Assembly (NCBI GenBank): GCA_964527995.1
Contig: CAZGRP010000004.1
Coordinates: 20,230 to 84,229, forward strand
DNA from: an uncultured Cytophagia bacterium
GTDB lineage: Bacteria > Zhuqueibacterota > Zhuqueibacteria > Oceanimicrobiales > CAZGRP01
Length of the DNA stretch: 64,000 bases
Reading direction: 5' to 3'
How positions within the stretch are numbered: position 1 is the stretch's first letter; each line of letters opens with the position of its first letter. A program made the position numbers and the translations under genes. Shown here piece after piece: positions 82 through 59,166 of this stretch. The notes under the pieces were generated by a model. It was given only the letters and a program-made list of their open reading frames with translations, was not told the DNA's origin and did no database searches.

Positions 82-1983
82 ATGGCAGAGCTACTGGAGA
101 TAAAGTTTCGCGACCGTCGCCTGGCGCCGATCTGGGAGAAGGTGCAGCAGGGCGAGCGTCTTTCGTTGCAGGATGGGGTGACGCTGTTTGAGACGGACGA
201 TCTGCTGTCGCTTGGGAAGATGGCCCAGGCGGTGCAGCGCGAGAAGAGCGGTGATGCCGTCTATTTCGTTGTCAACCGCCAGATCAATCCGAGCAACATC
301 TGCGTGCTGTCGTGCAAGTTCTGCGACTTCGCCGCCAAGCCGGGCGACCCCGACGCCTATGAGATGACCCTCGATGAGATCCTGGCCAAGCTGAACCCGG
401 AGCTGCATGAGGTCCACATCGTCGGCGGACTGCATCCGCAGTGGCCCTGGGAGTTCTACCTGGAGATGATGCGGCGGATCAAAGAGGCCTTTCCCAGGAT
501 CGACATCAAGGCGTGGACCGCCGTGGAGATCGATTTTTTCTCCAAGAAATTCAAGCTACCGATCCCCGAGGTGCTGCGCCAGCTCAAGGAGGCCGGCCTT
601 TCCACCATGCCGGGAGGCGGTGCCGAGGTGTTTTCGGAACGTGTCCGCAAGCTGCTGTTTCATCAGAAGATCGGCGCCAAACGCTGGCTGGAAATCCACG
701 AGGCCGCCCATCGTCTCGGCATCCCGACCAACGCCACTCTGCTCTACGGCCATGTCGAGACCTTCGACGAGCGGGTAGAGCACCTGATCAGACTGCGCCA
801 GCAGCAGGATCGCAGCGGCGGGTTTCTCAGCTTTATCCCACTGGCCTTCCAGCCTGGAGATACGGGCATCAAGGATCGCCAGACCTCGGCTGTGGATGAT
901 CTGAAGACCATCGCCGTATCGCGGCTGATGCTGGATAATTTCCCGCATATCAAAGCCTACTGGATCATGCTCAGCGCTGAGGTGGCACCCGTGGCCCTGG
1001 ACTTCGGCGCCGACGACATGGACGGCACGGTGGGCGAGGAGCGCATCGCCCACGCTGCCAAGGCGACCAGCCCGATCGCCCTGGCCAAGGACCACATCGT
1101 TCGCATGATCCGCAGCGCCGGCAAGGTGGCCGTGGAGCGCGACATTCTCTACAACCCTATCGCTGTCTACGGCGATTTCCCGATCGGCAAGATCCCGTAC
1201 CTCAACTGCGTGCCGATCTATCGCCGCTTCCAGCCCAGGCCCTTCAAGCAGGTGCCGATGTCGCCGCGGCAAATGGGGCGGCTGGCGGAAGATCGGCAGA
1301 TCGACGGCGGGCCGCTGTCGCTGATGGACTACTTCGCCGTCGCAGACGATTACGTGATGCTCGACTACTGCATCGCTGTGCGCGACCTGGCGCGCAGCGT
1401 CGTGCTCTATTCCAACTTTGCCTGGCGCGACCTGGACGGAAAGCGCATCGGCATCACGGCCGAGACATCCACCTCGATCGAGCTGCTGAAGGTTCTTCTG
1501 CGCCAGAAATATCGCATCGCCGCCCGGCTGGAGCGCATGCACCCGGTCTTTCAGGCGGCCGAGGCGGAGGGGTTCGATGCCGTGCTGGTGATCGGCGATG
1601 AGGCGTTGCGAAGGTCGAAGTCGGGTCTGGCAGGGTTCACCTTCGGCTTCGACCTGGGCCGCGAGTGGTATGAATGGACCGGGCTTCCCTTCGTCTTTGC
1701 GGTCTGGGCCGTGCGTCGCGACCTGGCGGCTGAGATGAAGGCCCTGCTGGCGCAGCGACTCGAGGAGGCCGCTCGCAGCGCCGACAACCGCCATGCCGAT
1801 TTCGGCACCCACCACGGCCGGCGCCTGGGGTTGACGCCCACCGAGGTGCAGGTCTACCTCAACGGCTTCATCTATCGCGTCGGCGAGAAAGAGCGACGGG
1901 CCATCGAGCTTTTTCAGACCTTTCTCGGCCGCAGGGAGTCTGTGACGGCGGTAAGTCGGGTGGGTGAAGGTGATGCGGAATGA
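82..1983 (+). CDS. Radical SAM futalosine-pathway enzyme (MqnE/MqnC family; CxxxCxxC = CVLSCKFC) fused to C-terminal MqnA-like (chorismate dehydratase, PBP-fold) domain
   Basis: N-terminal ~370 aa carry the radical-SAM Cys triad and the GGLHPQ, MPGGGAEVF and FIPLAFQP motifs typical of MqnC/MqnE. C-terminal ~260 aa carry the IPYLNCVPIY and GITAETSTS motifs typical of MqnA. ATG at 82. Confidence 0.7.
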   Translation: MAELLEIKFRDRRLAPIWEKVQQGERLSLQDGVTLFETDDLLSLGKMAQAVQREKSGDAVYFVVNRQINPSNICVLSCKFCDFAAKPGDPDAYEMTLDEILAKLNPELHEVHIVGGLHPQWPWEFYLEMMRRIKEAFPRIDIKAWTAVEIDFFSKKFKLPIPEVLRQLKEAGLSTMPGGGAEVFSERVRKLLFHQKIGAKRWLEIHEAAHRLGIPTNATLLYGHVETFDERVEHLIRLRQQQDRSGGFLSFIPLAFQPGDTGIKDRQTSAVDDLKTIAVSRLMLDNFPHIKAYWIMLSAEVAPVALDFGADDMDGTVGEERIAHAAKATSPIALAKDHIVRMIRSAGKVAVERDILYNPIAVYGDFPIGKIPYLNCVPIYRRFQPRPFKQVPMSPRQMGRLAEDRQIDGGPLSLMDYFAVADDYVMLDYCIAVRDLARSVVLYSNFAWRDLDGKRIGITAETSTSIELLKVLLRQKYRIAARLERMHPVFQAAEAEGFDAVLVIGDEALRRSKSGLAGFTFGFDLGREWYEWTGLPFVFAVWAVRRDLAAEMKALLAQRLEEAARSADNRHADFGTHHGRRLGLTPTEVQVYLNGFIYRVGEKERRAIELFQTFLGRRESVTAVSRVGEGDAE

Positions 1984-2146
1984 TGGAGGGATGGAGTGGT
2001 GGATTTGTGGAGTGGTTCGAACACGTTTGTTAGGTTCGCGTGAGAGGAAAGCAGGCGCCTCTGGAGGAAACTCGATGACTTCATTCCTCCATCGCTCCAG
2101 TTGGGTCGTTTGCTCTCGATTGCCTTCTTGAAGAATCGGAGGAAAA

Positions 2147-3292
2147 ATGCAGGACCTGGCAGTTGAATCGTTGCTAGCAAAAGCCCACGAAGGAGAACGG
2201 CTCTCCCCAGAAGAAGGCTTGGCCCTGCTGCGTGAGGCCGAATTGCTCGACCTCGGTGCCGCTGCGGAGGCGGTGCGTTATCGCCACAATCCGCGGCCGT
2301 GGGTGACCTTCATCGTCGATACCAATCCCAACTATACCAACGTCTGCAACGTCGACTGCATCTTCTGTGCTTTCTATCGACACGAGGGCGAGGAGGGTGC
2401 CTACACCTATTCCGTGGACGAGATGATCCAGAAGTTCAAGGAGATGGTGCCGTTGGGGGTGACCACTGTGCTGCTCCAGGGTGGTGTGAATCCGAACCTG
2501 CCCTTCGACTACTACCTGGAGCTCGTCCGCAGGACAAGAGCCGAGGTGCCGGAAATCCATCCCCATTTCTTCTCGACATCGGAAATTATCGGCGTGGCCG
2601 AAGTGTCTGGCCTGTCGATCCGCGAGGTGCTGCAGCAACTGTATGAGGCTGGGTTGAGAACCATCCCGGGAGGCGGTGCCGAAATTCTGGCCGATCGCGT
2701 CAAGAAGAAGATCAGCCACAAGAAGGGCACGTCCGATGACTGGCTCGAGGTGATGCGCCTGGCCCACCAGATCGGCTATCGCACCACGGCCACGATGATG
2801 TACGGCCACCTGGAGCGCGACGAAGAGATCATTGAGCATCTGGAACGCATTCGGGCGCTGCAAGACGAGACCGGCGGCTTCACGGCCTTCATCCCGTGGA
2901 GCTTCAAGCCCGGGAACACACCGTTGGAGAAGATCATCCCCACCTACGCCACGCCGAATCGCTATCTGCAGATGATTGCTCTGTCACGCATCTACCTCGA
3001 CAACTTCCCGCACATCCAGGCGTCCTGGTTCTCCGAGGGCAAGAAGATCGGCCAGGTGGCGCTGCATTTCGGCGCCGACGATTTCGGCGGCACCTTGGTC
3101 GAAGAGAATGTGCACAAGGCCGCCAACTTCGTCAACACCACCTCCACCGAGGAGGTCGTCTCACTCATCCGGGAGTCTGGTTTTGTGCCTGCCCAGCGGA
3201 CGACGCTGTATGAGGTGGTGAGAGTGTATGAGAACGGAGGGGCGGGAGTTAGGAAGCAGGAATCAGAAGGTAGTATCGCGAATCAGGTCTAG
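2147..3292 (+). CDS. Radical SAM menaquinone-biosynthesis enzyme, MqnC/MqnE family (paralog of previous gene)
   Basis: CNVDCIFCAF radical-SAM motif. Overall collinear similarity to the N-terminal domain of the preceding ORF (GGVNPNLP, IPGGGAEIL, FIPWSFKP, ALHFGADDFGGT). Confidence 0.7.
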   Translation: MQDLAVESLLAKAHEGERLSPEEGLALLREAELLDLGAAAEAVRYRHNPRPWVTFIVDTNPNYTNVCNVDCIFCAFYRHEGEEGAYTYSVDEMIQKFKEMVPLGVTTVLLQGGVNPNLPFDYYLELVRRTRAEVPEIHPHFFSTSEIIGVAEVSGLSIREVLQQLYEAGLRTIPGGGAEILADRVKKKISHKKGTSDDWLEVMRLAHQIGYRTTATMMYGHLERDEEIIEHLERIRALQDETGGFTAFIPWSFKPGNTPLEKIIPTYATPNRYLQMIALSRIYLDNFPHIQASWFSEGKKIGQVALHFGADDFGGTLVEENVHKAANFVNTTSTEEVVSLIRESGFVPAQRTTLYEVVRVYENGGAGVRKQESEGSIANQV

Positions 3293-3381
3293 GTAGCAGA
3301 GAGCCAGCTCGTCGGTGAATTGCATTCATCGACGCCCCCTTGAACCGGGCTCTCTGAAAAGGTGAGAAAGAATCTTGATTT

Positions 3382-3472
3382 GTCATTCCTGCGAAGCTTG
3401 TCCTCGCGAAGGCGGGGAGCGGGAATCCAGAAAAGTAAATAAGTTATAGATTCCCGCTTGCGCGGGAATGAC
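3382..3472. repeat. Nested inverted-repeat (REP/MITE-like or structured RNA) element in convergent mqnC-mqnD intergenic region
   Basis: gtcattcctgcg (3382-3393) pairs with cgcgggaatgac (3461-3472). gcgggaatc (3420-3428) pairs with gattcccgc (3449-3457). There is a local 8-bp hairpin attcccgc-ttgc-gcgggaat, followed by an aaaaag-tagg-cttttt A/T hairpin. Confidence 0.5.
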
Positions 3473-3676
3473 AGAAAAAGTAGGCTTTTTGGACAGCCTC
3501 TCGCTCTAGCCTGTCGGAAAGACGGGAATCATGCCGTCCTTTCTCAGGATCTCTCCCTCGTCAGTTCCTTCCAGCAGTTCCTCTGGGATCAGCAGAACTT
3601 GCTCAGCTACTTTTGCCCTCATCGGCGTTGCATTCATGAAGAGCCGGGCTGAAACCCAAAACCCAAAACCCGAAAC

Positions 3677-4513
3677 CTAGTACAGCAGCACCTCCGGCTT
3701 CGACGGAATGATGCCGCGCTCATGGGCTCGCTGGAACAGCAGCTCCAGAGCCTGCCTCCCGGGTTCGCCCATGTCGATAGTGACCTCGTTCACATACATC
3801 TTCACGAATCGTGTGCCCAGGTCGGTATCGATGCCGCGGCCGAATTCGAGCGCATACGGAATCGCTTCCTCCTGGTGAGCATAGCCGTACTCGATACTCT
3901 TGCGAAGCGCGGCAGAGATGCGGCCCGCCAGGTCCTCTCCCAGGTCTGACCGCACCACATCCAGTCCCAGCGGCAGTGGCAGCCCGCCACTCTCCTCTTG
4001 CCAGATCTCTCCAAAGTCTGCCACTTTATGAAGGCCGAACTCGCGGTAGGTGATTTGACCCTCGTGGATCAGCAGTCCGGCATCCACCTGGCCGTCGAGC
4101 ACGGCGTCGATGATCTGGTCGAACGGCATTTGAACGGCCTGAGCTCCGTCGGTGTAGATCTGAAAGAGCAGATAGGCGGTCGTCAGCTTCCCGGGGGTTG
4201 CCACCCGGCGGCCGCGCAGATCTTCCAGGCGGTCGACCTCTTTCGCCACGATGATAGGGCCGTAGCCGTCGCCCATGCTGGCTCCGGTGCGCATGATCCA
4301 GTAGTGGCCGGCAACGTAGGGGAAGGCATGAGCCGAAATCGCCGTCACCTCCAGCTCGGCGCGCAGAGCCCGTTCGTTGAGGCTCTGGATGTCCTCCATG
4401 ATGTGCTCGATCACGAAGTCGTCCAGGCTGACCTTGCCGCTGGCCAGGCCGTAAAACATGAAGGCGTCGTCAGGGTCGGGGCTGTGACCGACGCGCAATA
4501 ATCTTCCTGTCAT
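3677..4513 (-). CDS. mqnD: 1,4-dihydroxy-6-naphthoate synthase MqnD
   Basis: N-terminal LRVGHSPDPDDAFMFYGL matches the MqnD signature (GxSPCPND-F-F). Start chosen at MTGRLL (4513); the ORF extends to 4549 with alternative ATGs at 4528 and 4549. Confidence 0.7.
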   Translation of the reverse strand: MTGRLLRVGHSPDPDDAFMFYGLASGKVSLDDFVIEHIMEDIQSLNERALRAELEVTAISAHAFPYVAGHYWIMRTGASMGDGYGPIIVAKEVDRLEDLRGRRVATPGKLTTAYLLFQIYTDGAQAVQMPFDQIIDAVLDGQVDAGLLIHEGQITYREFGLHKVADFGEIWQEESGGLPLPLGLDVVRSDLGEDLAGRISAALRKSIEYGYAHQEEAIPYALEFGRGIDTDLGTRFVKMYVNEVTIDMGEPGRQALELLFQRAHERGIIPSKPEVLLY

Positions 4514-4545
4514 TTCTTTGCACTCCATGTGTGATTGTGACCCGA

Positions 4546-4791
4546 TCATCGACCCTTTGAGAGTCCGGGCGGAACCCGACCGCGCAGCAGGCTGACCAGA
4601 GTTTCGAAGTCTCTGCCGACGATGACTTCGCCGTTCCGGATCCGCCGGGCGAATTCGCTGGCCTTGTCCTGCAGCATGTGTGGGCTTTTGACTCGAGGAT
4701 CTTTGAGCAGCTTCTTCAGGTTGCGCTCCAGCACTTCGATGACCTGCTCGCGCTCCTCGATGGTGGCACGGCTGTAGTCGGCGACACCCAT
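4546..4791 (-). CDS. Hypothetical small protein (81 aa), no recognisable domain
   Basis: High GC3 coding frame. ATG (MGVADY) lies 10 nt after the stop of the upstream small ORF. Could be one frameshifted gene together with 4802-5032. Confidence 0.3.
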   Translation of the reverse strand: MGVADYSRATIEEREQVIEVLERNLKKLLKDPRVKSPHMLQDKASEFARRIRNGEVIVGRDFETLVSLLRGRVPPGLSKGR

Positions 4792-4801
4792 GTCAGCGCA
4801 C

Positions 4802-5032
4802 TCAACGACCGGCGACAGTGCTCGCTGCGCCGCCGTCCTGTGTGCGCCGCGGGGATTGAGAAGCGCCGTTCTGATCGCCTGTCGCCGCTGCCGGCTGGCG
4901 GGCGAGGACATACCCGCCTGGCTTGATATCCACAGGAATGTCGCATTGCGACAGATTCGTGGCGCCCATGATCGCCAGAACCAGCAAGAGGAGAAACAGC
5001 ACCAGAGCCATGGCGGGCGAAGGTTCTTTCAT
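4802..5032 (-). CDS. Hypothetical small membrane/secreted protein (N-terminal hydrophobic helix AMALVLFLLLLVLAIMGA)
   Basis: ATG at 5032 preceded by GGAGG (rc of 5041-5045) with an 8-nt spacer. Strong GC3 bias. Hydrophobic N-terminus. Confidence 0.3.
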   Translation of the reverse strand: MKEPSPAMALVLFLLLLVLAIMGATNLSQCDIPVDIKPGGYVLARQPAAATGDQNGASQSPRRTQDGGAASTVAGR

Positions 5033-5356
5033 CGATGGAGCCTCCAGATAGGGCCTTGAAGCTGCAGTTGGAAATCCTGCCACGCAATCGATAGGCAAAG
5101 GTAAGAGATTGAGTCACGGAACGCAACCAGATTCTTGTAGAAATCCTGTACCTGCCGCGCCGCCCGCGACAGACCTGCCATCGGTGGATGACATTCTTTC
5201 CCACTGGAGTCGGAGCGATGGCTGAAACTGTGGCAGAAAGTTCTGAAAAATGTTCCGAGCGTTCTGGTTCAGGAGGATGAACAGGGAGCGCCGTAAGCAA
5301 GTTCTTAAGTTTCGTAAAAACACTGAATTGGATTGGTTGGTTTTCGGCGGTTGTTC

Positions 5357-5372
5357 TGGCACGCGGGTTGCA
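5357..5372 (+). promoter_or_regulatory. Sigma-54 (RpoN) -24/-12 promoter: TGGCACG-cggg-TTGCA
   Basis: Exact match to YTGGCACGrNNNTTGCW. GG at 5358-5359 and GC at 5370-5371 (12-nt spacing). It lies ~70 nt upstream of the first hsp20 start. Confidence 0.55.
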
Positions 5373-5446
5373 AAATGCAACTACGAAGGATCATGTTCAA
5401 CAGCATGGACGTGATCGACCTACGAGAGGTAAGGAGGTGAGTGGCA

Positions 5447-5893
5447 ATGCTGGAGACTTTGAGTCCTGTTCTCAGGTCGGAGCCGTTCAGGGAATTGGCC
5501 CGGCTACGTGAGCGGCTGGATCGGATGCTGGAGGACCTTATGCGCATGGAGCCGAGCGCGCGCTGGGAGTACAACTTCCCGCCTTGCAACCTGATCAACA
5601 CCGATGATGAGCTGGTTCTCTATTGTGAGCTCCCTGGCGTCAGCCGCGAGGACTTCCATGTGGAGGTCATCGACAACCGCCTGATGCTGCGTGGAGAAAA
5701 GAAGTTTCCAGAGTTGCCTGAGGGCGCCCATTGGGTGTGCAATGAGCGCAGCTATGGCCAGTTCAATCGCAACATCGAGCTTCCATACCCTGTCGATCGC
5801 AGCAAGGTGAAGGCCACATTCCACGATGGGGTCCTGGAAGTCCATCTGCCCAAGACCGATGAGGTTCGGGCAAAGGAGATCGAGGTCCGTTGA
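5447..5893 (+). CDS. Hsp20/alpha-crystallin family small heat-shock protein
   Basis: Alpha-crystallin domain architecture. AGGAGG at 5433-5438 sits 8 nt before ATG 5447; the ORF begins at GTG 5441. Confidence 0.85.
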   Translation: MLETLSPVLRSEPFRELARLRERLDRMLEDLMRMEPSARWEYNFPPCNLINTDDELVLYCELPGVSREDFHVEVIDNRLMLRGEKKFPELPEGAHWVCNERSYGQFNRNIELPYPVDRSKVKATFHDGVLEVHLPKTDEVRAKEIEVR

Positions 5894-5989
5894 ACAGGGG
5901 CCGAGTGTGGTTGAGACGAACTCGAGAGGCTGAGTCGGCCTCCTGGGTTGCGGAGTCATTCCGAAGATCTGGCAAGGAGGTGATGTCCG

Positions 5990-6433
5990 ATGTTGGAAAG
6001 GTATGAGCCCGCCCTGGCTACGGAGCCGTTCGAGGGGCTCCGCACGATCCGCAGCCGGATCAATCGTCTGTTCAGTGAACTGTTTCCCGAGTTCGAGCGT
6101 ACCGAGGAGTGGTTCTATCCGACCTACGACATGATCGACACCAAGGACGAGGTCGTGCTCTTCGTCGAGCTGCCGGGGGTCGGCAAGAACGATTTCAAGC
6201 TGACCGTGAACAATGACATTCTGACCATCAGCGGCGAGAAGAGAAGGGTGGACATGCCCGAAGGGGCCAGCCGGCTGCGCAACGAAATCACCTACGGGAA
6301 TTTCAATCGGCAGATCCGGCTGCCCTATCCCGTCGATGCCGACATGATCAAAGCGGAGCTGCGCAACGGCATGCTGACCATCCACCTGCCCAAGAAGGAA
6401 GAGGTCAAGCCTAAGGAGATTCCGGTCAGCTAA
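5990..6433 (+). CDS. Hsp20/alpha-crystallin family small heat-shock protein (tandem paralog)
   Basis: Collinear with the previous protein (VELPGV, ELPYPVD, L..HLPK). RBS caaggaggtg before the ATG. Confidence 0.85.
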   Translation: MLERYEPALATEPFEGLRTIRSRINRLFSELFPEFERTEEWFYPTYDMIDTKDEVVLFVELPGVGKNDFKLTVNNDILTISGEKRRVDMPEGASRLRNEITYGNFNRQIRLPYPVDADMIKAELRNGMLTIHLPKKEEVKPKEIPVS

Positions 6434-6456: not shown

Positions 6457-6511
6457 GCAGGCGGGCTTCCTTCCGGCGACAGTCGGATGGATGTCCCGCC
6501 TGTTTTTATTT
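6457..6511 (+). terminator. Putative rho-independent terminator of hsp20 operon
   Basis: Stem gcaggcggg (6457-6465) pairs with cccgcctg (6495-6502), followed by tttttattt (6503-6511). The loop is large. Confidence 0.45.
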
Positions 6512-6595: not shown

Positions 6596-8461
6596 ATGAG
6601 GCTGAAATCAAAAATTGCCATCATCTTCGTGTTGTTGGTGATTCTGCCGCTTGCCGCCGGGATCGTCGTGTCCTTGCACGCTCTCAGCGGCTATCTGTCT
6701 TTTCAGCAATATGCGGTGATTCGGCAGACGGCGGAGCAGCTCGACGATCTGATCGGTCTGGAGAAGGAGGACGTCCAGGCGATCGTCGAGGTGCTGAGTG
6801 GCACCCGTGCAGTGCGGCAGGCGGTGGCTGAACGCGACGTGAATCGGTTGCGCCTGCTGGCTCGAATCTATCAGCGTCTGGCACGTGCCGATATCGTCGA
6901 GTTTCGCGACACGGACGGCCGACTTCTTCTGCGTCGGGAGCGCCGCGGGGCTGAACTTACGCAAGATGTTCATCCCGGACCGTGGCGGGCGCCGGAGAGG
7001 CCCTCGGTTGATATTTATCCGGAGCGAGGCGAGGTGGTGATCCGGGCTACTTCGCCCGTTTTTTTCGCCGGCAAGCTGGTTGGCTCGGTGTCGGTCGCGG
7101 AGCGCCTGTCGCGCGAATTCATCGAGCGGTACAAGAGGGAGATGGGACTTGAGGTCGCCATCCTGGGGCGCAATCGCGTGCTCTACTCGACTCTGAAGGG
7201 ACTACAGTTGCAGGCCCTGCCGTTGGCCGCCATCGAGTCGGCGCGCAGACAGTCCTACGGCCGCACGCGGGTTTCTGGCAAGACCTATACCATGGCCGCC
7301 TACCCGTTGCTGGGCTCCGACGGACGCTATCAGGGCGCACTGCTTCTTTTTCAGATCGAGACCACGTTTCGAGCGGCAGTGGCGCGGGCGCGCCGGGCGA
7401 TTGCCCTGGCTGGAGTGCTCTCGCTTACCTACGCCCTGGGCGTTGGCTACGTGGCGACGCGGCGACTGCAGGCCCCGATTTTCGAGCTGCAACAAAAGAT
7501 GCATCAGGTGATGACGGGCAATTATGACGTCGAGGTGCGCGTCCGCACCTCGGATGAGTTCCGCGACCTCGCCGAAGGTTTCAACAGAATGTTGAACCAG
7601 ATCCGCCGGTCCCGAGAGCATTTGCGCATTCAGAACCAGCGACTGCGGGCTTTCGCCAGAGCCATGCAGCGCGAGCTGGACGTAGCCGGGCAGGTTCAGT
7701 CTCTGTTGATCCCGGAAGAGTACACCGACGACCGGGTCTCCGTCAGGGTGCAATACTTCCCGATGCTGCGGGTTGGTGGGGATTACGCTTATTTGCATAT
7801 GAGCGACGAAGGAGTCGGGTATTTCATCATCGCCGACGTGTCGGGGCATGGGGTAGCTGCCGCCCTTCTGATGAGCAGAGTCAGTGCCGAGGTTGAGAAT
7901 CTGGTGCGCAGCGACGCACCGATCGCTGATCTGATTTCGCATCTGAACCGTTTCATCTACGAAAACTTTTCTTCCACAGGGATGTACGTGACCTTCTTCT
8001 GTGCCCGTGTTCAGTTTCAGACGGGATGGATCGAGTATGGAAATGCTGGCCATCCGGCACAGTGGCTGTTTCGAGCCCGTGCTGACGAAGTCGTGGAGCT
8101 GCCTGCCCTGAACCTGCCGCTCGGTGCCTTCCCAGCGGAAACATTCGGCGAGCCCATGACGAAGACCGTTCCGTTCGAAGTCGGCGACCGCTTCTTTCTA
8201 TTCACCGACGGCATGTTCGAGGTCAGCGACCCCGAGGGGAACCCTCTCGGGCTCGGACGCCTGCGAGGGATTCTCGAGGAGGCTCTGAGACACTCCGAGG
8301 AGGTTCCCATCGAGTACGTGGTGAACGCCGTGAAGAAGTACAGCGGCGGCCGTTTCGAGGACGACGCGCTGTTCGTGTCGGTACGATTCCTGGGTGGGCC
8401 GGCGAGGCCGGAACCGGTGGCAGCGGCAGCGGCGGAGGCTGTCGGGGCAGAGAAGGTATGA
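6596..8461 (+). CDS. Membrane sensor protein-serine phosphatase, PP2C/SpoIIE family with HAMP linker (RsbU-like)
   Basis: Domain order: TM helix (IAIIFVLLVILPLAAGIVVSL), ~250-aa extracytoplasmic region, second TM, HAMP-like segment (DEFRDLAEGFNRMLNQI), then PP2C motifs (GGDYAY, IADVSGHGVAAALLMS, FLFTDGMFE). Start ambiguous: GTG 6587 or ATG 6596. Confidence 0.75.
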   Translation: MRLKSKIAIIFVLLVILPLAAGIVVSLHALSGYLSFQQYAVIRQTAEQLDDLIGLEKEDVQAIVEVLSGTRAVRQAVAERDVNRLRLLARIYQRLARADIVEFRDTDGRLLLRRERRGAELTQDVHPGPWRAPERPSVDIYPERGEVVIRATSPVFFAGKLVGSVSVAERLSREFIERYKREMGLEVAILGRNRVLYSTLKGLQLQALPLAAIESARRQSYGRTRVSGKTYTMAAYPLLGSDGRYQGALLLFQIETTFRAAVARARRAIALAGVLSLTYALGVGYVATRRLQAPIFELQQKMHQVMTGNYDVEVRVRTSDEFRDLAEGFNRMLNQIRRSREHLRIQNQRLRAFARAMQRELDVAGQVQSLLIPEEYTDDRVSVRVQYFPMLRVGGDYAYLHMSDEGVGYFIIADVSGHGVAAALLMSRVSAEVENLVRSDAPIADLISHLNRFIYENFSSTGMYVTFFCARVQFQTGWIEYGNAGHPAQWLFRARADEVVELPALNLPLGAFPAETFGEPMTKTVPFEVGDRFFLFTDGMFEVSDPEGNPLGLGRLRGILEEALRHSEEVPIEYVVNAVKKYSGGRFEDDALFVSVRFLGGPARPEPVAAAAAEAVGAEKV

Positions 8462-44827: not shown

Positions 44828-45685
44828 GTGGCAAAACTCACCAGTGGCAGTCGCAGTCGAAGTGAGCAGTCTCTCGAACGCTACCTCCAAGAAATTGGAG
44901 AAGTTCCACTCCTGACACCTGAGGAAGAGATTGAGCTGGCGAAGCGGATCAAGAAGGGGGACCACGAGGCACTTGAAAAACTCACCAAGGCCAACCTGCG
45001 GTTCGTGGTCAGCGTCGCCAAGCAGTATCAGAATCAGGGGCTTTCCCTGGGTGATTTGATCAACGAGGGCAACCTCGGCCTCATCAAAGCCGCCAACCGC
45101 TTTGATGAGACACGCGGCTTCAAGTTTATCTCCTATGCCGTCTGGTGGATCCGCCAGTCCATCCTCCAGGCCCTGGCCGAACAGTCCCGCGTGGTTCGGC
45201 TGCCGCTGAACCGCGTCGGCGCACTCAACAAAATCGGTAAGGCTCTGAGTGCGCTGGAACAGGAGTTCGAGCGCGAGCCTTCGGCGGCGGAGATCGCCGA
45301 TGAGTTGGACATGACGCCCTACGAGGTTTCGGACACCCTAAAGATTTCCGGCAAGCACCTTTCCCTCGATGCTCCCTTCAACCAGGACGAAGAGAGTCGA
45401 CTGCTCGACGTCCTGGCGAGCAATGAACTTCCCTCCCCAGATAACCGCCTGATGCGCGAGTCCCTCAAGATCGAGGTCGAACGCGCTCTGGCGAGTCTCA
45501 CCCCGAGAGAGGCGGAGGTCGTAAAACTCTATTTTGGTCTGGGTCGGGAACATCCCCTGACCCTCGAGGAAATCGGCGAGCGATTCAACCTGACGCGGGA
45601 ACGCGTACGGCAGATCAAAGAGAAGGCGATTCGCAGGCTTCGCCACGCCTCACGCAGCAAACCACTGCGGAGCTATCTCGGCTAG
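44828..45685 (+). CDS. RNA polymerase sigma-70-family factor, short RpoD-like (regions 1.2-4, no region 1.1)
   Basis: [18 protein letters not shown] (region 2), [10 protein letters not shown] (2.4), [25 protein letters not shown] (region 4.2). Confidence 0.85.
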
Positions 45686-48901: not shown

Positions 48902-50686
48902 ATGCCGGCAAAAGAGGTGAAGGGAGCAACCAAGAGGAGAGCGAAGGCGGACCCAGACAAGGCCGAACTTGCCCGCTTGCGTCGAGAAAACCAGTTGTTG
49001 GCCAAGCGGGCGCGAGCGACCAGGCGTATGGCCGACATGATGTCGGCGACTATCCGGCAGCTCGAGGCCATCAACGACCTGAACAAGTATCTCGGCGCCA
49101 TTTGGGACCTGGACAAGATTTTCGCCGAAACCATCCGCCTGTTGCGCCAGCAGATTCCTGTGGACGCAGCCTGGTTCTTCCTTTGGGACAAGACGGAGGA
49201 GACACTTCGACTCCGCGCCCAATACGGCGGCGGCAACGGTCTCACGGCGGAACTGGACCCCACCGTTCAGAGTGTGGCCGGCATCATCGTTGGGCAAAGT
49301 AAGGTCGAAGCCGCGCGTGAAATCTCACTGGTCAATCAGTCGCTGGCCGAACGCCTGTCTCGCTCTCTCATGGCGCTGGCCCTTCGCTACAAGCAAACGG
49401 CAGTGGGGGCGCTGGTCCTGCTGAGCCGGGAAGGAGCCATCTTTTCCCGTGCAGATCGGAGATTCAGTGAGAAGGTGGCCAACCAGGTGACTCTGGCGAT
49501 CCAGCGTGGCTTGTTGATCACCAAGTTCATCGATAAGAACGAGCGGCTGGCAGCGGCAAACGAAGAGCTGAATCGCGCCAAGGAACGCCTCAGCGAATGG
49601 AACCGCAATCTCGAGCAGGCCGTCGAAGAGCGGACTCACGAGCTGCGCACCTGGCACGATTTCTTGCAATCGGTCATCGACGGCTTGAGTGACGCCATTC
49701 TGATCGTCAACCGTGACCACCAGGTTCTGTTTGCCAACAGGGCCGCCAAACGCCTGGCAGAGATCGCGGCCGATTCTCTGGGCCGGTGCTACAACCGCGA
49801 CGCCGATGACCCCTGCCATTGCACGGATTGCCCCACAGCTCGCACTTTCTCGACCGGTGAGATTGGTCATACCTCCTACAGCGCTGTCGGTGGCGACGGG
49901 ATGCAGCGCTACTACGAGATGTGGACGTATCCGATCCGAGGCAAGAGCGGTGTGGTCGACCGTGTTATCGAAATCGTGCGCGATGTGTCGGAGCAGAAGT
50001 GGCTTGAGGCCCAGCTTGTGCAGGCGGAAAAGATGGCCTCCCTGGGCGAAGTGGCCAGCGGCATCGCTCATGAGATTCGCAACCCTCTCACCGGAATCAA
50101 ACTGGGCTTGAACGTCCTCAAGAATGAGCTGGACGGTGATTCAACCAAGCTGCAAGTGATGGAGCGCATCGCCCGCGACATCGACATGCTCGATCGCGTT
50201 GTGACCCAGATGCTCGAGTTTACGCGCCAGCGCGAAGTTCGCAAGGAGAGCTGCCAGCTTCTCGACGTGCTGGATAAGGCCACCTTCTACGTCAGCAAAC
50301 AAGCCCGTGACCACGGCATCGTGATTCACCGGGAGTTCAGCCCGACGCCGCCGATTCAGGTGGACCCGATTCTTATCCAGCAAGTTTTCTTGAATCTCCT
50401 GCTGAACGCAGTTCAGGCTATGCCATCGGGCGGCGACCTCTACCTTTCGGTCCGGACTCGGCATGCGCCGGACGGGATTGAAGTCGTCATCCGGGACACC
50501 GGCCCGGGGATTCCGGCGGCCAACAGGGCTCGCATCTTTCAACCGTTCTTTTCCACCAAACCGGGGGGAACCGGTCTGGGTGTACCGATTTCGGAACGCA
50601 TCGTCCGCGACCACGGGGGGCAGTTGCGCATCGATAGTGAGCCTGGCCGGGGTACTTCGGTCATCATCTTTCTACCCGAACAATGA
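48902..50686 (+). CDS. Cytoplasmic sensor histidine kinase (GAF-PAS-HisKA-HATPase_c), NtrB-like
   Basis: H-box EVASGIAHEIRNPL. N, G1, G2 boxes (LLLNAVQAM, RDTGPGIP, GTGLGVPI). No TM segments. The ORF begins at GTG 48872. Confidence 0.8.
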   Translation: MPAKEVKGATKRRAKADPDKAELARLRRENQLLAKRARATRRMADMMSATIRQLEAINDLNKYLGAIWDLDKIFAETIRLLRQQIPVDAAWFFLWDKTEETLRLRAQYGGGNGLTAELDPTVQSVAGIIVGQSKVEAAREISLVNQSLAERLSRSLMALALRYKQTAVGALVLLSREGAIFSRADRRFSEKVANQVTLAIQRGLLITKFIDKNERLAAANEELNRAKERLSEWNRNLEQAVEERTHELRTWHDFLQSVIDGLSDAILIVNRDHQVLFANRAAKRLAEIAADSLGRCYNRDADDPCHCTDCPTARTFSTGEIGHTSYSAVGGDGMQRYYEMWTYPIRGKSGVVDRVIEIVRDVSEQKWLEAQLVQAEKMASLGEVASGIAHEIRNPLTGIKLGLNVLKNELDGDSTKLQVMERIARDIDMLDRVVTQMLEFTRQREVRKESCQLLDVLDKATFYVSKQARDHGIVIHREFSPTPPIQVDPILIQQVFLNLLLNAVQAMPSGGDLYLSVRTRHAPDGIEVVIRDTGPGIPAANRARIFQPFFSTKPGGTGLGVPISERIVRDHGGQLRIDSEPGRGTSVIIFLPEQ

Positions 50687-52107
50687 GCGCATCGAGTCAC
50701 AAGCAGATCCTGATCGTCGACGACGAAGACAACATCCGCGAGTTCCTTTCGGTCTCCTTCGTGCGCGAGGGCTTCATCGTCCATACCGCCGAGTCGGGTG
50801 CCGTGGCGGAGGAGCTGTTTCAGGCATACGTCCCGGACATCGTGATCCTTGATGTTCGTCTGCCGAACCAGCACGGGCTGGATGTGTTGCGACGCATGCT
50901 CGAATTCAATCGCGACACCATGATCATCATGATCACGGCGTACGGCGACATCAAAACGGCTGTGGAGGCGATGAAGGCAGGGGCTGCGGACTACATCAGC
51001 AAGCCGTTCGACTTTGAGGAGATCCAGCTGGCCGTGGAAAGGGCGCTCCATGTTCAGGCCCTCAAGAACAAGCTCGCCGTTCTGGAGTCGCAGTCTGCCT
51101 CCTACGCCGACATGATCGGTGTCAGCGATCGCATGCGCCAGGTTTTTGCCACCATCGAGCGTGTGGCCGAAACGCCTGACTCCACGGTGCTCATCATGGG
51201 CGAGAGTGGCACTGGAAAGGAACTGGTAGCCCGGGCGATCCACAAGAGAAGCAGGCGGCACGAGAATCCTTTTGTGGCTGTCAACTGTTCCAGCTTGAAG
51301 GAACAGTTGCTGGAGAGCGAGCTGTTCGGTCATGAACGCGGCGCTTTCACCGATGCCCGGGAGCGAAAGAGGGGTCTCTTTGAGGTCGCTGACGGCGGCA
51401 CGATCTTCCTGGACGAAATCGGCGACATGGACGTCCGTTTGCAGTCCCAGCTTCTGCGCGTGCTGGAGGAGAGGGTTTTCCGGCGGGTCGGTGGCACCCG
51501 CGACATTCCCGTGGACGTACGGGTGATCGCCGCAACCAACAAGGATCTCCGGCAGGAGGTGGACGCCGGCCGGTTTCGCGACGATCTTTTCTATCGCCTC
51601 AGCGTGGTGCCTGTGGCGATTCCACCCTTGCGCGAGCGCAAAGAGGACGTACCTCCTCTGGTACGGTACTTCATCGAGGAGTTCAATCGCAAGTTGAGCC
51701 GGTCGATCCGCGGCATCACACCGGACGCGCTGAATGCGCTGATCATCTACGAATGGCCTGGAAACGTGCGCGAACTTCGAAATGTTATCGAAAGGATCGC
51801 CATTCTTGAGAATCCCGAGTTGATCCGCCTGGAGCACCTTCCGGTGGAGATCGCTCGCCGCGATGAGAGTGGATCCGGAGCGGCCGATGCCCTGGTGCAA
51901 CTGCCCTACCATGAAGCCAAGGCCCAGATGCTGGAAACGTTCGAGCGCCGTTATCTGCTCGGGTTGTTGCATCGTTATGGCGGCAACGTCTCCAAATGCG
52001 CCGAAGTAGCCGGTATCGATCGCAGTAGCTTTCATCGGCTACTGAAAAAGCACAGGATCGACTCAACGGCGTTTCGTTCCAGCACGACCGAACGGACTCT
52101 TCAGTGA
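50683..52107 (+). CDS. Sigma-54-dependent response regulator (REC-AAA+-HTH, NtrC family)
   Basis: REC domain with [20 protein letters not shown] Walker A. GAFTDA GAFTGA-like sigma-54 contact motif. C-terminal Fis-type HTH. Confidence 0.85.
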
Positions 52108-52114
52108 GGCCACA

Positions 52115-52134
52115 CTGTGGCGCTGGCGCCACAG
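52115..52134 (+). terminator. Short perfect hairpin after sigma-54 regulator gene (no U-tract)
   Basis: ctgtggcgc-tg-gcgccacag. Confidence 0.3.
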
Positions 52135-52207
52135 ACCGTAACTCGTGAGGAAACAAGGTGGAGTGTTTCTGGTGTTGTAGGCACGCCACAGTCGTCTGAA
52201 TATTTCG

Positions 52208-52236
52208 TTGACAATGGCCTTTTCCTCACTTTTATT
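52208..52236 (+). promoter_or_regulatory. Sigma-70-type promoter TTGACA-N17-TTTATT upstream of ferredoxin-sigma operon
   Basis: -35 at 52208-52213 and -10 at 52231-52236. Confidence 0.45.
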
Positions 52237-52391
52237 TCGCTGTTTTCGCCCCATTCTAGCCCATCACAGGCGGCCCTACGCAAGGAGCGTGGTACGGTGA
52301 TTGCCTTCCTTCCAGTGATCAATCATGGAGAGTGCTGGTCCGCGATTCTCCGGTAGAAGACGAGCATCTTTACAAGGGAGGTGAACGTATC

Positions 52392-52670
52392 ATGACCTAC
52401 ATCATTGCCGAGCCATGCGTGGGCGTTCGCGATCGGGCCTGCGTGGACGTGTGTCCTGTGGACTGTATCTATGAGGTCGAGGACACGCAACTCGAACCGG
52501 ATGACGAAGCCTACAAGGAAATGCTGTACATCCATCCGGAGGAGTGCATCGACTGTGGCGCCTGCGAGCCCGAGTGCCCGGTTGAAGCCATCTTCCCCGA
52601 GGACGAGGTCCCGGAGAAGTGGGAAGCCTACATCGACTACAACTACAAAGCCTTTGGGTTGAGCCGTTGA
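52392..52670 (+). CDS. Ferredoxin (two-cluster, 7Fe/8Fe-type)
   Basis: MTYIIAEPC...[10 protein letters not shown]...[21 protein letters not shown]. Confidence 0.8.
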
Positions 52671-52714
52671 CGTTGGTGATGTTACGGACGACAATCCGGG
52701 CGAGGTGAGGTTTT

Positions 52715-53575
52715 GTGGCAAGAGGTCAGCGGGGAAGCCGCGAGTATATCGACGAAGGATTCCGCCGCTACATGCGGGAGATCCAGGATTTTCCGGTTCT
52801 CACTCGGGCCGAGGAACAGCTTCTGATCCGCAAGGCCAAAGAGGGCGATCGGAAGGCGGCGGAACGGCTGATTGTCAGCAATTTGCGCTTCGTGGTCACG
52901 ATTGCCAATGAGTACAAGGATCGCGGAGTGCCGATGCTGGACTTGATCAGCCAGGGCAACCTCGGCCTGATAAAGGCGCTGGAGACGTTCGATCCGTCCA
53001 GAGGGCTGAAGTTCATCACGTATGCCGTCTGGTGGATCCGGCAGGCGATGCTGCAAGCCATCGCCGATCACTCCAGGGTGGTGCGAATACCCCAGAACCG
53101 ACTTGCCACCATGCGTCGGATTGAAATGGCCCGCCGAGAGCTTCAAAAGGTACACCAGCGCGACCCTGTGACCGAGGAAATCGGCCAGTCGCTTGGAATG
53201 GGTTCCGACGAAGTCCTCGATACCCTTCGGCTCATCCACACTGAAGTCTCCCTCGAGCAGACGCTCCAGGGCGAAAGCGATAGCCAGCTGAAGGAGCTGA
53301 TCGCCAATCCAACGTCACCTCGTCCGGATGATCGCGTCAACGCTGAATCTTTGGGACAGGATTTGCAGGACGCTTTGAGTCTGCTCAGCGACCGCGAGGC
53401 GACAATCTTGCGGCTTTACTATGGTTTGGAAAACGAGCAGGCACACTCTCTCGGCACGATCGGAGAGCGTTTTAATCTGTCACGGGAGAGAATACGGCAG
53501 ATACGCGATCAGGCCTTGAGGAAGCTCCGCCTTTCGGCGGACATCATCGCCCGCCTCCGAGAATACCTCGGCTGA
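52715..53575 (+). CDS. RNA polymerase sigma-70-family factor, short RpoD-like paralog (~50% identical to 44828-45685)
   Basis: [56 protein letters not shown] start 44 nt after the ferredoxin stop. Confidence 0.85.
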   Translation: MARGQRGSREYIDEGFRRYMREIQDFPVLTRAEEQLLIRKAKEGDRKAAERLIVSNLRFVVTIANEYKDRGVPMLDLISQGNLGLIKALETFDPSRGLKFITYAVWWIRQAMLQAIADHSRVVRIPQNRLATMRRIEMARRELQKVHQRDPVTEEIGQSLGMGSDEVLDTLRLIHTEVSLEQTLQGESDSQLKELIANPTSPRPDDRVNAESLGQDLQDALSLLSDREATILRLYYGLENEQAHSLGTIGERFNLSRERIRQIRDQALRKLRLSADIIARLREYLG

Positions 53576-54149: not shown

Positions 54150-54869
54150 ATGGAGTTTTTGGCTCTTACCGACAAACCTTCTGCCAATCGTCCCGTAAAC
54201 AAAAAAATGTCTGAAGTCTTTCCTCACCAGAGCAAATCTCTTTCTGCCTCTGGAAAGCGACCGACACGCGCTTGGGAGGACAGCGGCCTTGAGGGGGACG
54301 GTTCTGATGTTGCACTTCCGAGTTTGTGGACCAAGAACAGCCAGGCGCTCAGCGTGAAATGGAGTTTGTGCTTTCTACCAGGGGACTTTAGCAATTTTTC
54401 CGAGACGGTGCAGATCAGCTTTCCCAGCAGGCTGGACTACGTGCCCGTAGTCGTCTCCTACCTGACCGAAGTCGCCGCCCGTCTCAAGCTGATCGATGCG
54501 GATGAATCGAACTTCCCGGTCGTGGTAGATGAGGCCCTGACCAACGCCGTAGTCCACGGCAACCGTAGCGACCACGGCAAGCTCGTGCACGTCAGGGCAA
54601 CGTTTACGCCGCACAGGCTGGAGGTCGCGGTGCGCGACGAAGGGCAAGGGTTCGACTATGATCTCTTGCCGAACCCGCTCGAAAAGGACAATCTGCACCG
54701 TACCCACGGCAGAGGTATCTTCTTGATTCGCTCCCTGGTGGATGAACTTCGCTTCAATGAAGCTGGGAATGAGATCATCCTCGTGCAGACTGTCAGACAA
54801 GATGCAGCGAGGAAGCGCCAGTCGAGCCACCCCCATTGTTCTCCCGCCCGAGACTCAGAAACCCCTTGA
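54150..54869 (+). CDS. RsbW/SpoIIAB-type anti-sigma factor serine kinase (HATPase_c_2)
   Basis: VDEALTNAVVHGN (N-box), VRDEGQGFD (G1), GRGIFLIRSLVDEL (G2). Confidence 0.65.
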   Translation: MEFLALTDKPSANRPVNKKMSEVFPHQSKSLSASGKRPTRAWEDSGLEGDGSDVALPSLWTKNSQALSVKWSLCFLPGDFSNFSETVQISFPSRLDYVPVVVSYLTEVAARLKLIDADESNFPVVVDEALTNAVVHGNRSDHGKLVHVRATFTPHRLEVAVRDEGQGFDYDLLPNPLEKDNLHRTHGRGIFLIRSLVDELRFNEAGNEIILVQTVRQDAARKRQSSHPHCSPARDSETP

Positions 54870-56710: not shown

Positions 56711-58081
56711 ATGACGGCTGTTGCGCCACGGATCTTGCTCGTCGATGACGAGGCCAATTTCCGCAAGACGGTGGTCGATCTCCTCAAGCTCGAGGGATAC
56801 GAGGTCTTTACGGCACCGAGCGGAGCCGACGCCCTGGCGATTCTCGAAGATGTCACGGTAGACATTGTCATCACCGATGTGCGCATGCCTCGAATGTCAG
56901 GCGTGGAGCTGTTGCAGCGTCTCCGCCACGCGCATCCCGACGTGGATGTAATCGTGCTCACCGGCTACGGATCGATTCATGACGCGGTGAGAACCATCAA
57001 GATGGGCGCCTACAACTACGTCATGAAACCGGTGAATTTTGAGGAGCTGGCGCGAGACGTTCGTGACATCCTTCGGATGCGGAATCGGCTGCCCGAAGGA
57101 TCAATCGCCTCGGATTCCGCTGCAGACAGCATTGTTGGCAGCAGCCCGCCGATCCGGCACGTCCGGCATCTGATCGACCGGTTCGCGGCATCGGAACTCC
57201 CTGTGCTCATCGAAGGAGAAAGCGGAACCGGCAAGGAGCTGGTTGCCAATGCCATCCATGCGCGCAGTCCCCGAGCCGAGAATCCGTTCGTACGAATCAA
57301 CTGTGCCGCGCTTCCGGAACCACTGACCGAAAGCGAGCTTTTTGGCTACGAACGCGGCGCCTTCACGGGGGCGACCCAGCAGAAGAAGGGAAAAATCGAG
57401 TTGGCGAGCGGCGGAACGCTCTTCCTGGATGAGATCGCCGAGATGCCGCTGGGTACCCAGGCGAAGCTTCTGCGCGCCATCGAACAGCAGGAAATCGAGC
57501 GACTCGGTGGTACGGAGGTCATCAAAGTGGATGTGCGCCTGATCGCCGCAACGAACCAGAACCTGCGCGAGCTGGTGCAACGCGGGGAGTTTCGCAAGGA
57601 CCTGTACTACCGCATCAACGCCGTGTCCATCAAGACGCCGCCGCTTCGCTCGATGCCGGAAGACATTCCGCGTCTGGCCAATTATTTTCTCGACAAACAT
57701 TGCGCTGAGGTCGGAAAGCCGGTTCCCCGGCTCGGACGCGAGGTGATGCAGATTCTTCTCTCTCATCCCTGGCCTGGCAATGTGCGTGAGCTTGCAAACG
57801 TCATCCGCAGGGCGGCTATCCTGTGCGACGGCGGCGAACTGAATCCCGGACATCTTCCCGCAGAACTCGCGGAGCCGCCGGCCGAGGTTGCCGAAGACGA
57901 TGCCAGAACGTTGTCCCTGGATGAGCTTGAGCGACGTCATATCGCTCGCGTGCTGAGATTGACGGCGGGTAACAAGAATGCAGCGGCCCGATTGCTCAAT
58001 ATCCACCGCGATACGCTCTACCGCAAGATACGCAAGTACAACCTGTTATCTGATACCGGAGGAACACGCCAACCGGAGTGA
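56711..58081 (+). CDS. Sigma-54-dependent response regulator (NtrC family)
   Basis: REC (DVRMP), [22 protein letters not shown]-terminal HTH. Confidence 0.85.
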   Translation: MTAVAPRILLVDDEANFRKTVVDLLKLEGYEVFTAPSGADALAILEDVTVDIVITDVRMPRMSGVELLQRLRHAHPDVDVIVLTGYGSIHDAVRTIKMGAYNYVMKPVNFEELARDVRDILRMRNRLPEGSIASDSAADSIVGSSPPIRHVRHLIDRFAASELPVLIEGESGTGKELVANAIHARSPRAENPFVRINCAALPEPLTESELFGYERGAFTGATQQKKGKIELASGGTLFLDEIAEMPLGTQAKLLRAIEQQEIERLGGTEVIKVDVRLIAATNQNLRELVQRGEFRKDLYYRINAVSIKTPPLRSMPEDIPRLANYFLDKHCAEVGKPVPRLGREVMQILLSHPWPGNVRELANVIRRAAILCDGGELNPGHLPAELAEPPAEVAEDDARTLSLDELERRHIARVLRLTAGNKNAAARLLNIHRDTLYRKIRKYNLLSDTGGTRQPE

Positions 58082-58454: not shown

Positions 58455-58471
58455 TTGGTACGTCTGTTGCA
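58455..58471 (+). promoter_or_regulatory. Sigma-54 -24/-12 promoter: TTGGTACG-tctg-TTGCA
   Basis: GG 58457-58458, GC 58469-58470 (12-nt spacing). One mismatch to TGGCACG. ~70 nt upstream of the receiver gene ATG 58539. Confidence 0.5.
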
Positions 58472-58538: not shown

Positions 58539-59087
58539 ATGAATCTGCTTTTGATCGATCCCGAGCGGCGTACGCTCGAGGTCTATCGTGACATCTTTGA
58601 AATATGGGGGTACGACGTGACGGCCGTCCGCACCGGCTCGGAAGCGGCAAAGGCGTTTTCCGAGGCAGCCTTTGATCTTGTCATCCTGGATGACAACCTG
58701 CCGGACACGCCGGGGGTCGAACTGATTCGGGCGATGAAGACGCAAGCGCCGGCGGTTCCGCTGATTGTGATGACGGCCAACTCGACGGTGCGTGGAGCGG
58801 TGAGCGCCATCCGTGCGGGCGCCGACGACTATTTGGCCAAGAGCACCGATGTGGAGGGTGTTCGGCACTGCCTCCAAGAGACCCTCGGGCAGCGCCCCGA
58901 AAACTCGCAGTCAGCCAAACTGCAGGCAGAGATTCTGACGAACCTTCGCCGGGTTCGCGATCATTTGGATGAGGTGATCGGATTTATCGAGCAGGCAAGC
59001 CGCCGAAGGGCCGGGCAGAGCGACACGGGGGCCTCGAGGCCGGCCCAGACAAATCGCCACGCGGAGCGTGAAGATACTGCACCTTGA
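58539..59087 (+). CDS. Stand-alone response-regulator receiver protein with ~70-aa C-terminal tail
   Basis: LLLIDPE, LVILDDNLPD (acceptor Asp), VMTANST, YLAKS. The ORF begins at TTG 58449. Confidence 0.7.
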   Translation: MNLLLIDPERRTLEVYRDIFEIWGYDVTAVRTGSEAAKAFSEAAFDLVILDDNLPDTPGVELIRAMKTQAPAVPLIVMTANSTVRGAVSAIRAGADDYLAKSTDVEGVRHCLQETLGQRPENSQSAKLQAEILTNLRRVRDHLDEVIGFIEQASRRRAGQSDTGASRPAQTNRHAEREDTAP

Positions 59088-59166
59088 TGGCGGAAGCAAG
59101 GAGGTGTTTCTGCCACGGATGAGCTGACACGTTCTGACTCAGCGAGGAAGGTTGTCTCACGGCGAC

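Follow-up and report, generated by a model that had tools for sequence, protein, structure and literature searches.

A conserved predicted sigma-54 promoter precedes a tandem Hsp20 operon in an uncultured bacterium of the FCB group

Our analysis of a 64-kb stretch of DNA (the window) supports that a functional sigma-54 (RpoN) promoter of the -24/-12 type, located at positions 5357-5372 on the + strand, drives an operon of two small heat-shock genes, hsp20A and hsp20B. We place the probability of this reading at roughly 0.78. That a sigma-54 promoter drives a tandem Hsp20 operon was the core of the original prediction for this DNA, and the position, orientation and conservation of the site all argue well for it. 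In the arrangement that we propose, the two genes would be transcribed as a two-gene operon from this promoter, with a start at ~5383 and an end at the terminator at 6458-6511.

The two genes encode paralogous small heat-shock proteins that are 45% identical to each other. hsp20A (5447-5893, + strand) encodes a protein of 148 aa and hsp20B (5990-6433, + strand) one of 147 aa, and both matched the Pfam HSP20 model with high confidence (E = 4e-21 and 1e-20; 75.5 and 74.0 bits, respectively, with a gathering cut-off of 20.8). Both proteins also carry the C-terminal I/V-x-I/V sequence that is the oligomerisation motif of the small heat-shock protein family, as ...KEIEVR (I-E-V) in hsp20A and ...KEIPVS (I-P-V) in hsp20B. 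The genes are preceded by the same strong Shine-Dalgarno sequence, AAGGAGGTG, at 5431-5439 and 5974-5982 on the + strand. The start of hsp20A was set at the ATG at 5447, with a GTG at 5441 as the alternative start. Downstream of hsp20B, a long GC-rich hairpin (CAGGCGGG...CCCGCCTG) followed by TTTTTATTT forms an intrinsic terminator (6458-6511, + strand). The RNA fold of this region has an energy of -42.6 kcal/mol (z = -4.5), and none of 200 shuffled sequences folded equally well. The predicted transcription unit would comprise the promoter, a 64-nt leader, hsp20A, hsp20B and the terminator. An internal promoter between the two genes, of the type proposed for ibpB, was considered and rejected, as no -24/-12 spacing was found in 5894-5989.

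The promoter sequence, TGGCACGCGGGTTGCA, has no mismatches at the specified positions of TGGCACG-N4-TTGCW, and its GG and GC elements are spaced exactly 10 nt apart; the exact match to the RpoN -24/-12 consensus that had been predicted from the sequence was thus confirmed. The site is intergenic and co-oriented with hsp20A, and 74 nt separate the end of the motif from the ATG at 5447, in agreement with the ~70 nt first estimated. The intergenic region in which it lies is 414 nt long and has a G+C content of 51%, versus 60% in the window. From the -12 GC at 5370-5371 we infer a transcription start ~12 nt downstream of the GC, at ~5383, and thus a predicted 5' leader of 64 nt (5383-5446, + strand). 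When both strands of the 64-kb window were scanned, TGGCACGCGGGTTGCA was the single exact match to TGGCAC-N5-TTGC. The match count alone is only suggestive of a sigma-54 site. This is because 0.18 matches are expected per window by chance, and 15 of 100 shuffled windows had at least one.

That 15% of shuffles yield an exact match per 64 kb also lends something to the view that TGGCACGCGGGTTGCA is a chance or non-productive sigma-54 site, and that all transcription of the operon starts at a different promoter that has gone unrecognised. There is precedent for such sites in E. coli, which has many non-productive sigma-54 sites and in which the site at ibpB was left unconfirmed by ChIP-seq (PMC4591121). 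We consider this view very improbable for the site studied here, however, as TGGCACGCGGGTTGCA has the right position and orientation, a search upstream of hsp20A gave no other promoter of a known type, and the conservation of the site across loci whose proteins are 74-82% identical is confined to the consensus, with the spacer and flanks variable.

The evidence for this conservation comes from a protein search of 5.8 billion clusters with Hsp20A, which returned two diverged orthologues (P0002, 82% identity; P0003, 74%), with the next match at 45%. A scan of a genome collection with Hsp20A gave no confirmed relative. The orthologous contigs were syntenic with the window. They share an MqnA-like gene, two small divergent ORFs, hsp20A and hsp20B, followed beyond hsp20B by a dCache-HAMP-PP2C phosphatase, two CBS proteins and pyruvate:ferredoxin oxidoreductase, and the tandem hsp20A-hsp20B pair was kept in all of the syntenic loci. 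Conservation was assessed on three distinct orthologous sequences, namely the window, L003/L004 (the same sequence from two independent samples) and L005. Each has an exact TGGCAC-N5-TTGCA upstream of hsp20A (TGGCACGCGGGTTGCA in the window, TGGCACAAGGGTTGCA in L003/L004 and TGGCACGCAGGTTGCA in L005). In the alignment of the three motifs all 11 consensus positions were invariant, while three of the five spacer positions varied, so that the form common to these loci is TGGCAC, three variable positions and GGTTGCA. The 40 nt on each side of the motif could not be aligned among the three loci, nor could the leaders, in which the distance from the GC to the ATG ranged from 59 to 79 nt. Conservation of the consensus, with a spacer and flanks that drift, is the pattern that selection on a sigma-54 promoter would predict. 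It is this conservation in diverged orthologues, and not the statistics of the window, that leads us to read TGGCACGCGGGTTGCA as a probable functional site beyond chance.

The classical controls of small heat-shock genes (HrcA/CIRCE, HspR/HAIR, sigma-32 and the ROSE/fourU RNA thermometers) act on the same class of target gene, but none of them was detectable at the hsp20 operon. Neither a CIRCE nor a HAIR element was found anywhere in the 64-kb window with up to three mismatches allowed, and the best sigma-32-like match in 5033-5446 had five mismatches, which bears out the original prediction that no CIRCE/HAIR element and no sigma-32-type promoter would be present. A scan for sigma-70 promoters upstream of hsp20A found nothing reaching 9/12. 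No Rfam thermometer was found upstream of the hsp20 genes at E <= 10. An RNA thermometer in the leader was rejected based on the lack of an Rfam family and on the predicted leader folds, which were not conserved among the three orthologues (z-scores of -1.7 in the window, -0.5 in L003 and -3.3 in L005).

Two conserved blocks were observed upstream of the promoter. Block A (~5090-5138) is a conserved intergenic block that reads on the minus strand as TTG-N20-TACCTTTG (5126-5096), which is the -33/-7 shape of housekeeping promoters of the Bacteroidota type. About 60 nt downstream of it on that strand, at 5032, a small divergent ORF begins, and we read block A as the likely promoter of that ORF, separate from the hsp20 unit. 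The promoter-like site on this divergent strand was also counted toward the affiliation of the host with the FCB group.

Block B (5220-5258, + strand; GGCTGAAACTGTGGCAGAAAGTTCTGAAAAATGTTCCGA) is 39 nt long, and its conserved form is GGCTGAAAnnGTGrCAGAnnnnTnTGAAAAATGnTnnGA. Block B clearly appears to be a functional element, since the window, L003 and L005 agree at 28 of the 39 positions, whereas little of the intergenic DNA around the block can be aligned. Within block B are two CTGAAA-like repeats ~21 nt apart. There was no second copy of block B elsewhere in the 64-kb window, and a scan of a metagenome DNA collection that excludes the known JGI loci gave 11 matches, all of them AT-rich, unrelated and due to chance, and none with a -24/-12 motif. 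Two identities for the block were tried and rejected: a sigma-32 promoter, as the spacer is 18 nt and an A-run stands in place of the C-run, and a NifA-type TGT-N10-ACA site or other dyad, as the block has no dyad symmetry.

Block B may be an enhancer, that is, a binding site for the activator of the sigma-54 promoter, or a second promoter in tandem with it. Its location relative to the predicted start, about -163 to -125, is a usual position for an enhancer, and it is our best candidate for the binding site of the activator at the hsp20 operon. The distance from the end of block B to TGGCAC is 98 nt in the window and 99 nt in L005. In L003, where ~88 nt have been lost between block B and the sigma-54 motif (a loss also present in L004, from an independent sample), it is 10 nt. 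The enhancer reading is weakened by this locus, because a 10-nt gap is too close for the usual geometry of DNA looping.

The second possibility is that the operon has dual promoters. Block B would then be a promoter of the sigma-70 family (CTGAAA-N18-AAAAAT, with a start at ~5259) that provides basal transcription, or transcription by an alternative sigma factor, and its transcripts would read through the sigma-54 promoter, which would add stress-induced output. Such an arrangement would modify our best explanation and leave the sigma-54 promoter in place; we regard it as possible, if on the whole doubtful. In its favor, the + strand of the intergenic region has its closest match to a sigma-70 promoter inside block B, and the two most strongly conserved parts of the block, GGCTGAAA and TGAAAAATG, fall on the -35-like and -10-like hexamers of this match, all 12 positions of which are invariant in the three orthologues. 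The variable distance between block B and the sigma-54 motif is also what would be expected of tandem promoters, and not of an enhancer. Moreover, a tandem arrangement of a sigma-54 motif and a second sigma motif has been shown for remFG-sprCDBF of Flavobacterium psychrophilum (PMC9723704). On the other hand, the match is only 8/12 with an 18-nt spacer, which is below the threshold of our scan, and it is unlike the FCB-type housekeeping promoter (TTG ... TAnnTTTG) observed on the opposite strand at 5096-5126. The GTG.CAGA of the spacer is conserved as well, which is more in keeping with a protein-binding site than with a promoter, and spacings of 98 and 99 nt in two diverged sequences hint at a constraint on length.

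A more specific form of the enhancer reading is that block B is the non-palindromic enhancer of a dedicated activator, which would sense proteotoxic stress or temperature and switch on a sigma-54 heat-shock regulon. We hold this to be unlikely. If it were true, block B in L003 would work directly against the promoter, and the geometry of activation would be unlike that of classical DNA looping.

Sigma-54 holoenzyme forms a closed complex and is unable to open DNA alone. Since this is so, expression of hsp20 should depend on an ATP-hydrolysing enhancer-binding protein, which would be activated by a stress signal. As predicted originally, two NtrC-family activators are encoded in the window, the first at 50683-52107 and the second at 56711-58081. 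Each combines a receiver domain with AAA+ sigma-54-interaction and Fis-type HTH domains, and both are response regulators that follow their own PAS/GAF histidine kinase; the second has the motif GAFTGA, which in the first is GAFTDA. Directly after the first activator is an intergenic TGGTAC-N5-TTGC site at 52290 (TGGTACGGTGATTGCC), ~85 nt before a ferredoxin gene (52392-52670; 92 aa), after which the next gene encodes a sigma-70-family protein (52715-53575; 286 aa). A second such site, at 58456 (TGGTACGTCTGTTGCA), is intergenic and directly follows the second activator, ~65 nt before the gene for a CheY-like receiver protein (58539-59087). The site at 52290 has a counterpart, TGGTATGCAGTTTGCA, in an orthologous contig (L113; 86% protein identity). 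Three matches to TGGYAC-N5-TTGCH were found in the window versus 0.07 expected from shuffles, a comparison that is inflated as the pattern was chosen after the matches had been seen. The window has no rpoN gene within its 64 kb. The sigma-54 system nevertheless appears to be in use in this genome, because it encodes two activators with sigma-54-interaction domains and has two further TGGTAC-N5-TTGC sites, one of them conserved.

The two activators most likely act locally, since each directly precedes its own -24/-12-type site facing the next genes. The original prediction had hinted that they regulate hsp20, and this part of it found no support. One of the two response regulators might still activate the hsp20 promoter, given that they are the only activators visible, that both have the full set of domains and that enhancer-binding proteins can serve several targets. 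We find this improbable. Both genes are 45-51 kb from the hsp20 operon and coupled to their own kinases, and their own promoters, the first of which is conserved in L113, face a ferredoxin gene with a sigma paralogue in one case and a CheY-like regulator in the other. In addition, the sequence of block B is absent near both TGGTAC-N5-TTGC promoters, and the first activator lacks an intact GAFTGA. Nor did the ~10 kb that flank the hsp20 operon on each side contain any activator gene. Under the sigma-54 model that we favor, the activator of hsp20 would not be encoded beside the operon, and block B would be the candidate site at which it binds.

The host is, as judged from its genes, a deep-branching lineage of the FCB group. 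We base this placement on the relatives of its IleRS, the presence of a type IX secretion (T9SS) domain and its short sigma factors. No species representative retrieved in our scan has an IleRS more than 60% identical to that of the host, and the nearest matches were from an unclassified MAG, Ignavibacteria, Zixibacteria, KSB1, Krumholzibacteriia and Bacteroidota. The T9SS domain, CHU_C, is in a large LTD/CARDB protein encoded in the window. The window also encodes two sigma-70-family proteins of ~285 aa that score best against RpoD models, and homologues of this length are annotated as the primary sigma factor in KSB1, Calditrichia and Cyclobacteriaceae.

The association of sigma-54 with stress genes has parallels elsewhere. 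In the Psp stress operons, pspA depends on PspF and sigma-54. The hsp20 operon is like Psp-type operons in having a predicted sigma-54 promoter for a stress-protective, non-enzymatic protein, with a AAA+ activator; it differs in that the window has no pspA and the operon has no adjacent activator. Sigma-54 promoters near heat-shock genes were also reportedly noted by Chhabra in 2006 for the heat shock of Desulfovibrio vulgaris. A distant Hsp20 homologue, P0043 (locus L092), is itself located in a kinase-activator-PspA-Hsp20 cluster behind TGGCATGGCGGTTGCT. A -24/-12 motif was missing upstream at six distinct loci that encode more distant Hsp20 homologues (35-45% identity), and for that reason we rejected the idea that sigma-54 promoters go with this Hsp20 subfamily in general. 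Because of these six loci, we consider that sigma-54 control of hsp20 is probably a property of the host lineage, which matches the trend in the FCB group.

E. coli offers a parallel in ibpAB, a tandem pair of small heat-shock genes for which a sigma-54 input has likewise been proposed. A sigma-54 promoter was reported for ibpB (Kuczynska-Wisnik 2001, as cited in PMC2831329) and was used as a ChIP control (PMC2831329), but later genome-wide ChIP-seq judged it not genuine (PMC4591121). The main promoter of ibpAB is a sigma-32 promoter upstream of ibpA, and the sigma-54 site, TGGTAAATGGTTTGCT, is a weaker match that serves ibpB only. In the window, in contrast, a site of perfect consensus stands before both genes, and there is no sigma-32-type promoter upstream of hsp20A.

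Precedent for the hsp20 promoter comes from cultured relatives in the FCB group. In F. psychrophilum, Guerin et al. 2021 found a -24/-12 motif (the SM4 promoters) at the mapped transcription start sites of groES-groEL, lon, dnaK, grpE-dnaJ, htpG, skp and clpB (PMC9723704). In a survey of 16 phyla, Carrera-Reyna et al. 2025 found that predicted sigma-54 promoters in Bacteroidota and Planctomycetota were significantly enriched before the genes for GroEL, GroES, GrpE, DnaJ, DnaK and the COG0071 small HSPs, the last being the same family as the hsp20 pair (PMC12316311). The hsp20 operon resembles the sigma-54 proteostasis regulon of F. psychrophilum and other Bacteroidota in that a canonical -24/-12 element is directly before protein-quality-control genes. 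It differs in its host, a deep uncultured FCB lineage and not Bacteroidota proper, and in its target, as a tandem Hsp20 pair is not in the portion of the F. psychrophilum table compared (PMC9723704).

The hsp20 promoter conforms to what has been reported for chaperone genes of the FCB group, since it was preceded by the mapped promoters of F. psychrophilum and by the enrichment in the 2025 survey. Sigma-54 control of small heat-shock genes had been called unusual in the original prediction. This is correct relative to models from Proteobacteria and Firmicutes, but it was overstated for the FCB group, where mapped or predicted sigma-54 promoters precede chaperone genes (PMC9723704, PMC12316311). 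As sigma-54 drives chaperone and protease genes in the cultured FCB relatives studied, the hsp20 operon would most likely belong to a sigma-54 proteostasis regulon. No other chaperone or protease genes (dnaK, groESL, clpB, htpG, lon) were present in the window or in the contigs that we fetched.

Overall, the hsp20 operon leaves current understanding unchanged and would add to it a clean and conserved case in which sigma-54 controls a small heat-shock operon. The case comes from a host lineage without a cultured representative, outside the phyla surveyed so far, and it supports the idea that, across the wider FCB group, sigma-54 takes the role that sigma-32 or HrcA has in model bacteria. Block B may further provide a short, conserved candidate binding site for the group-wide question of which enhancer-binding protein senses protein damage or heat.

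Analysis of the genes surrounding the hsp20 operon revealed that a membrane sensor with dCache, HAMP and SpoIIE (PP2C phosphatase) domains is encoded directly 3' of the operon's terminator (6596-8461). This gene occupies the same place in all three syntenic loci, where it is followed by two CBS-pair proteins, and it is possible that the sensor is functionally tied to the hsp20 stress operon. On the other side of the operon there are divergent small ORFs, one of 76 aa at 4802-5032 and then an 81/121-aa ORF ending at 4546, that were present in all syntenic loci and had no match in a Pfam search. About 60 nt upstream of them, on the minus strand, is a conserved TTG-N20-TACCTTTG element (5096-5126) whose layout resembles that of Bacteroidota-type -33/-7 housekeeping promoters. 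The genes at 82-4549 are a futalosine-pathway menaquinone cluster, comprised of an unusual 633-aa fusion of radical-SAM CofH/MqnC-like and MqnA-type (VitK2_biosynth) domains (82-1983), next to it another radical-SAM gene, of MqnC/E-like type (2147-3292), and, on the minus strand, an MqnA-like gene that stands alone (3677-4549).

Both NtrC-type activator genes in the window are followed by a -24/-12-type site. The first activator (50683-52107), a GAFTDA variant, precedes the -24/-12 site TGGTACGGTGATTGCC (52290-52305), 3' of which are genes for a 92-aa 4Fe-4S ferredoxin (52392-52670), a 286-aa sigma-70-family paralogue (52715-53575) and an RsbW-like HATPase_c_2 protein (54150-54869). A sigma-54-to-sigma cascade is possible in the region 50683-53575. 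In the orthologous contig L113 the site is kept as TGGTATGCAGTTTGCA (about 1590-1610; 86% aa). Just past the first activator's stop codon we also noted a perfect 9-bp inverted repeat, CTGTGGCGC-TG-GCGCCACAG (52115-52134), with an additional half-site, CGCCACAG, at about 52183. The promoter at 52290 begins some 155 nt further downstream of the repeat. The repeat, whose conservation in L113 is only partial, may be the binding site of the first activator, or a terminator stem.

The sigma-70-family paralogue is one of two such proteins, both of ~285 aa and without region 1.1, that share 45% mutual identity. FCB bacteria have a short primary sigma factor to which the other protein (44828-45685) is similar. 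Orthologues of the protein at 52715-53575 are confined to the host lineage (85-91%), the next matches falling to 51%.

The second activator (56711-58081), which has GAFTGA, is followed by the site TGGTACGTCTGTTGCA (58456-58471), about 65 nt upstream of a gene for a 182-aa CheY-like receiver protein (ending at 59087) and then a ParA/MinD-like gene (59152-60258). The site and the CheY-like gene look like a second local sigma-54 target.

A distant Hsp20 homologue (41% identity) was found in L092, a locus of the unrelated MAG GCA_973788715.1 (about 519-4483), in the gene order histidine kinase, sigma-54 activator, PspA, Hsp20, MFS and M48 peptidase. The sequence TGGCATGGCGGTTGCT is located 128 nt upstream of the histidine kinase gene, and this cluster may represent an autoregulated sigma-54 operon for envelope and proteotoxic stress.
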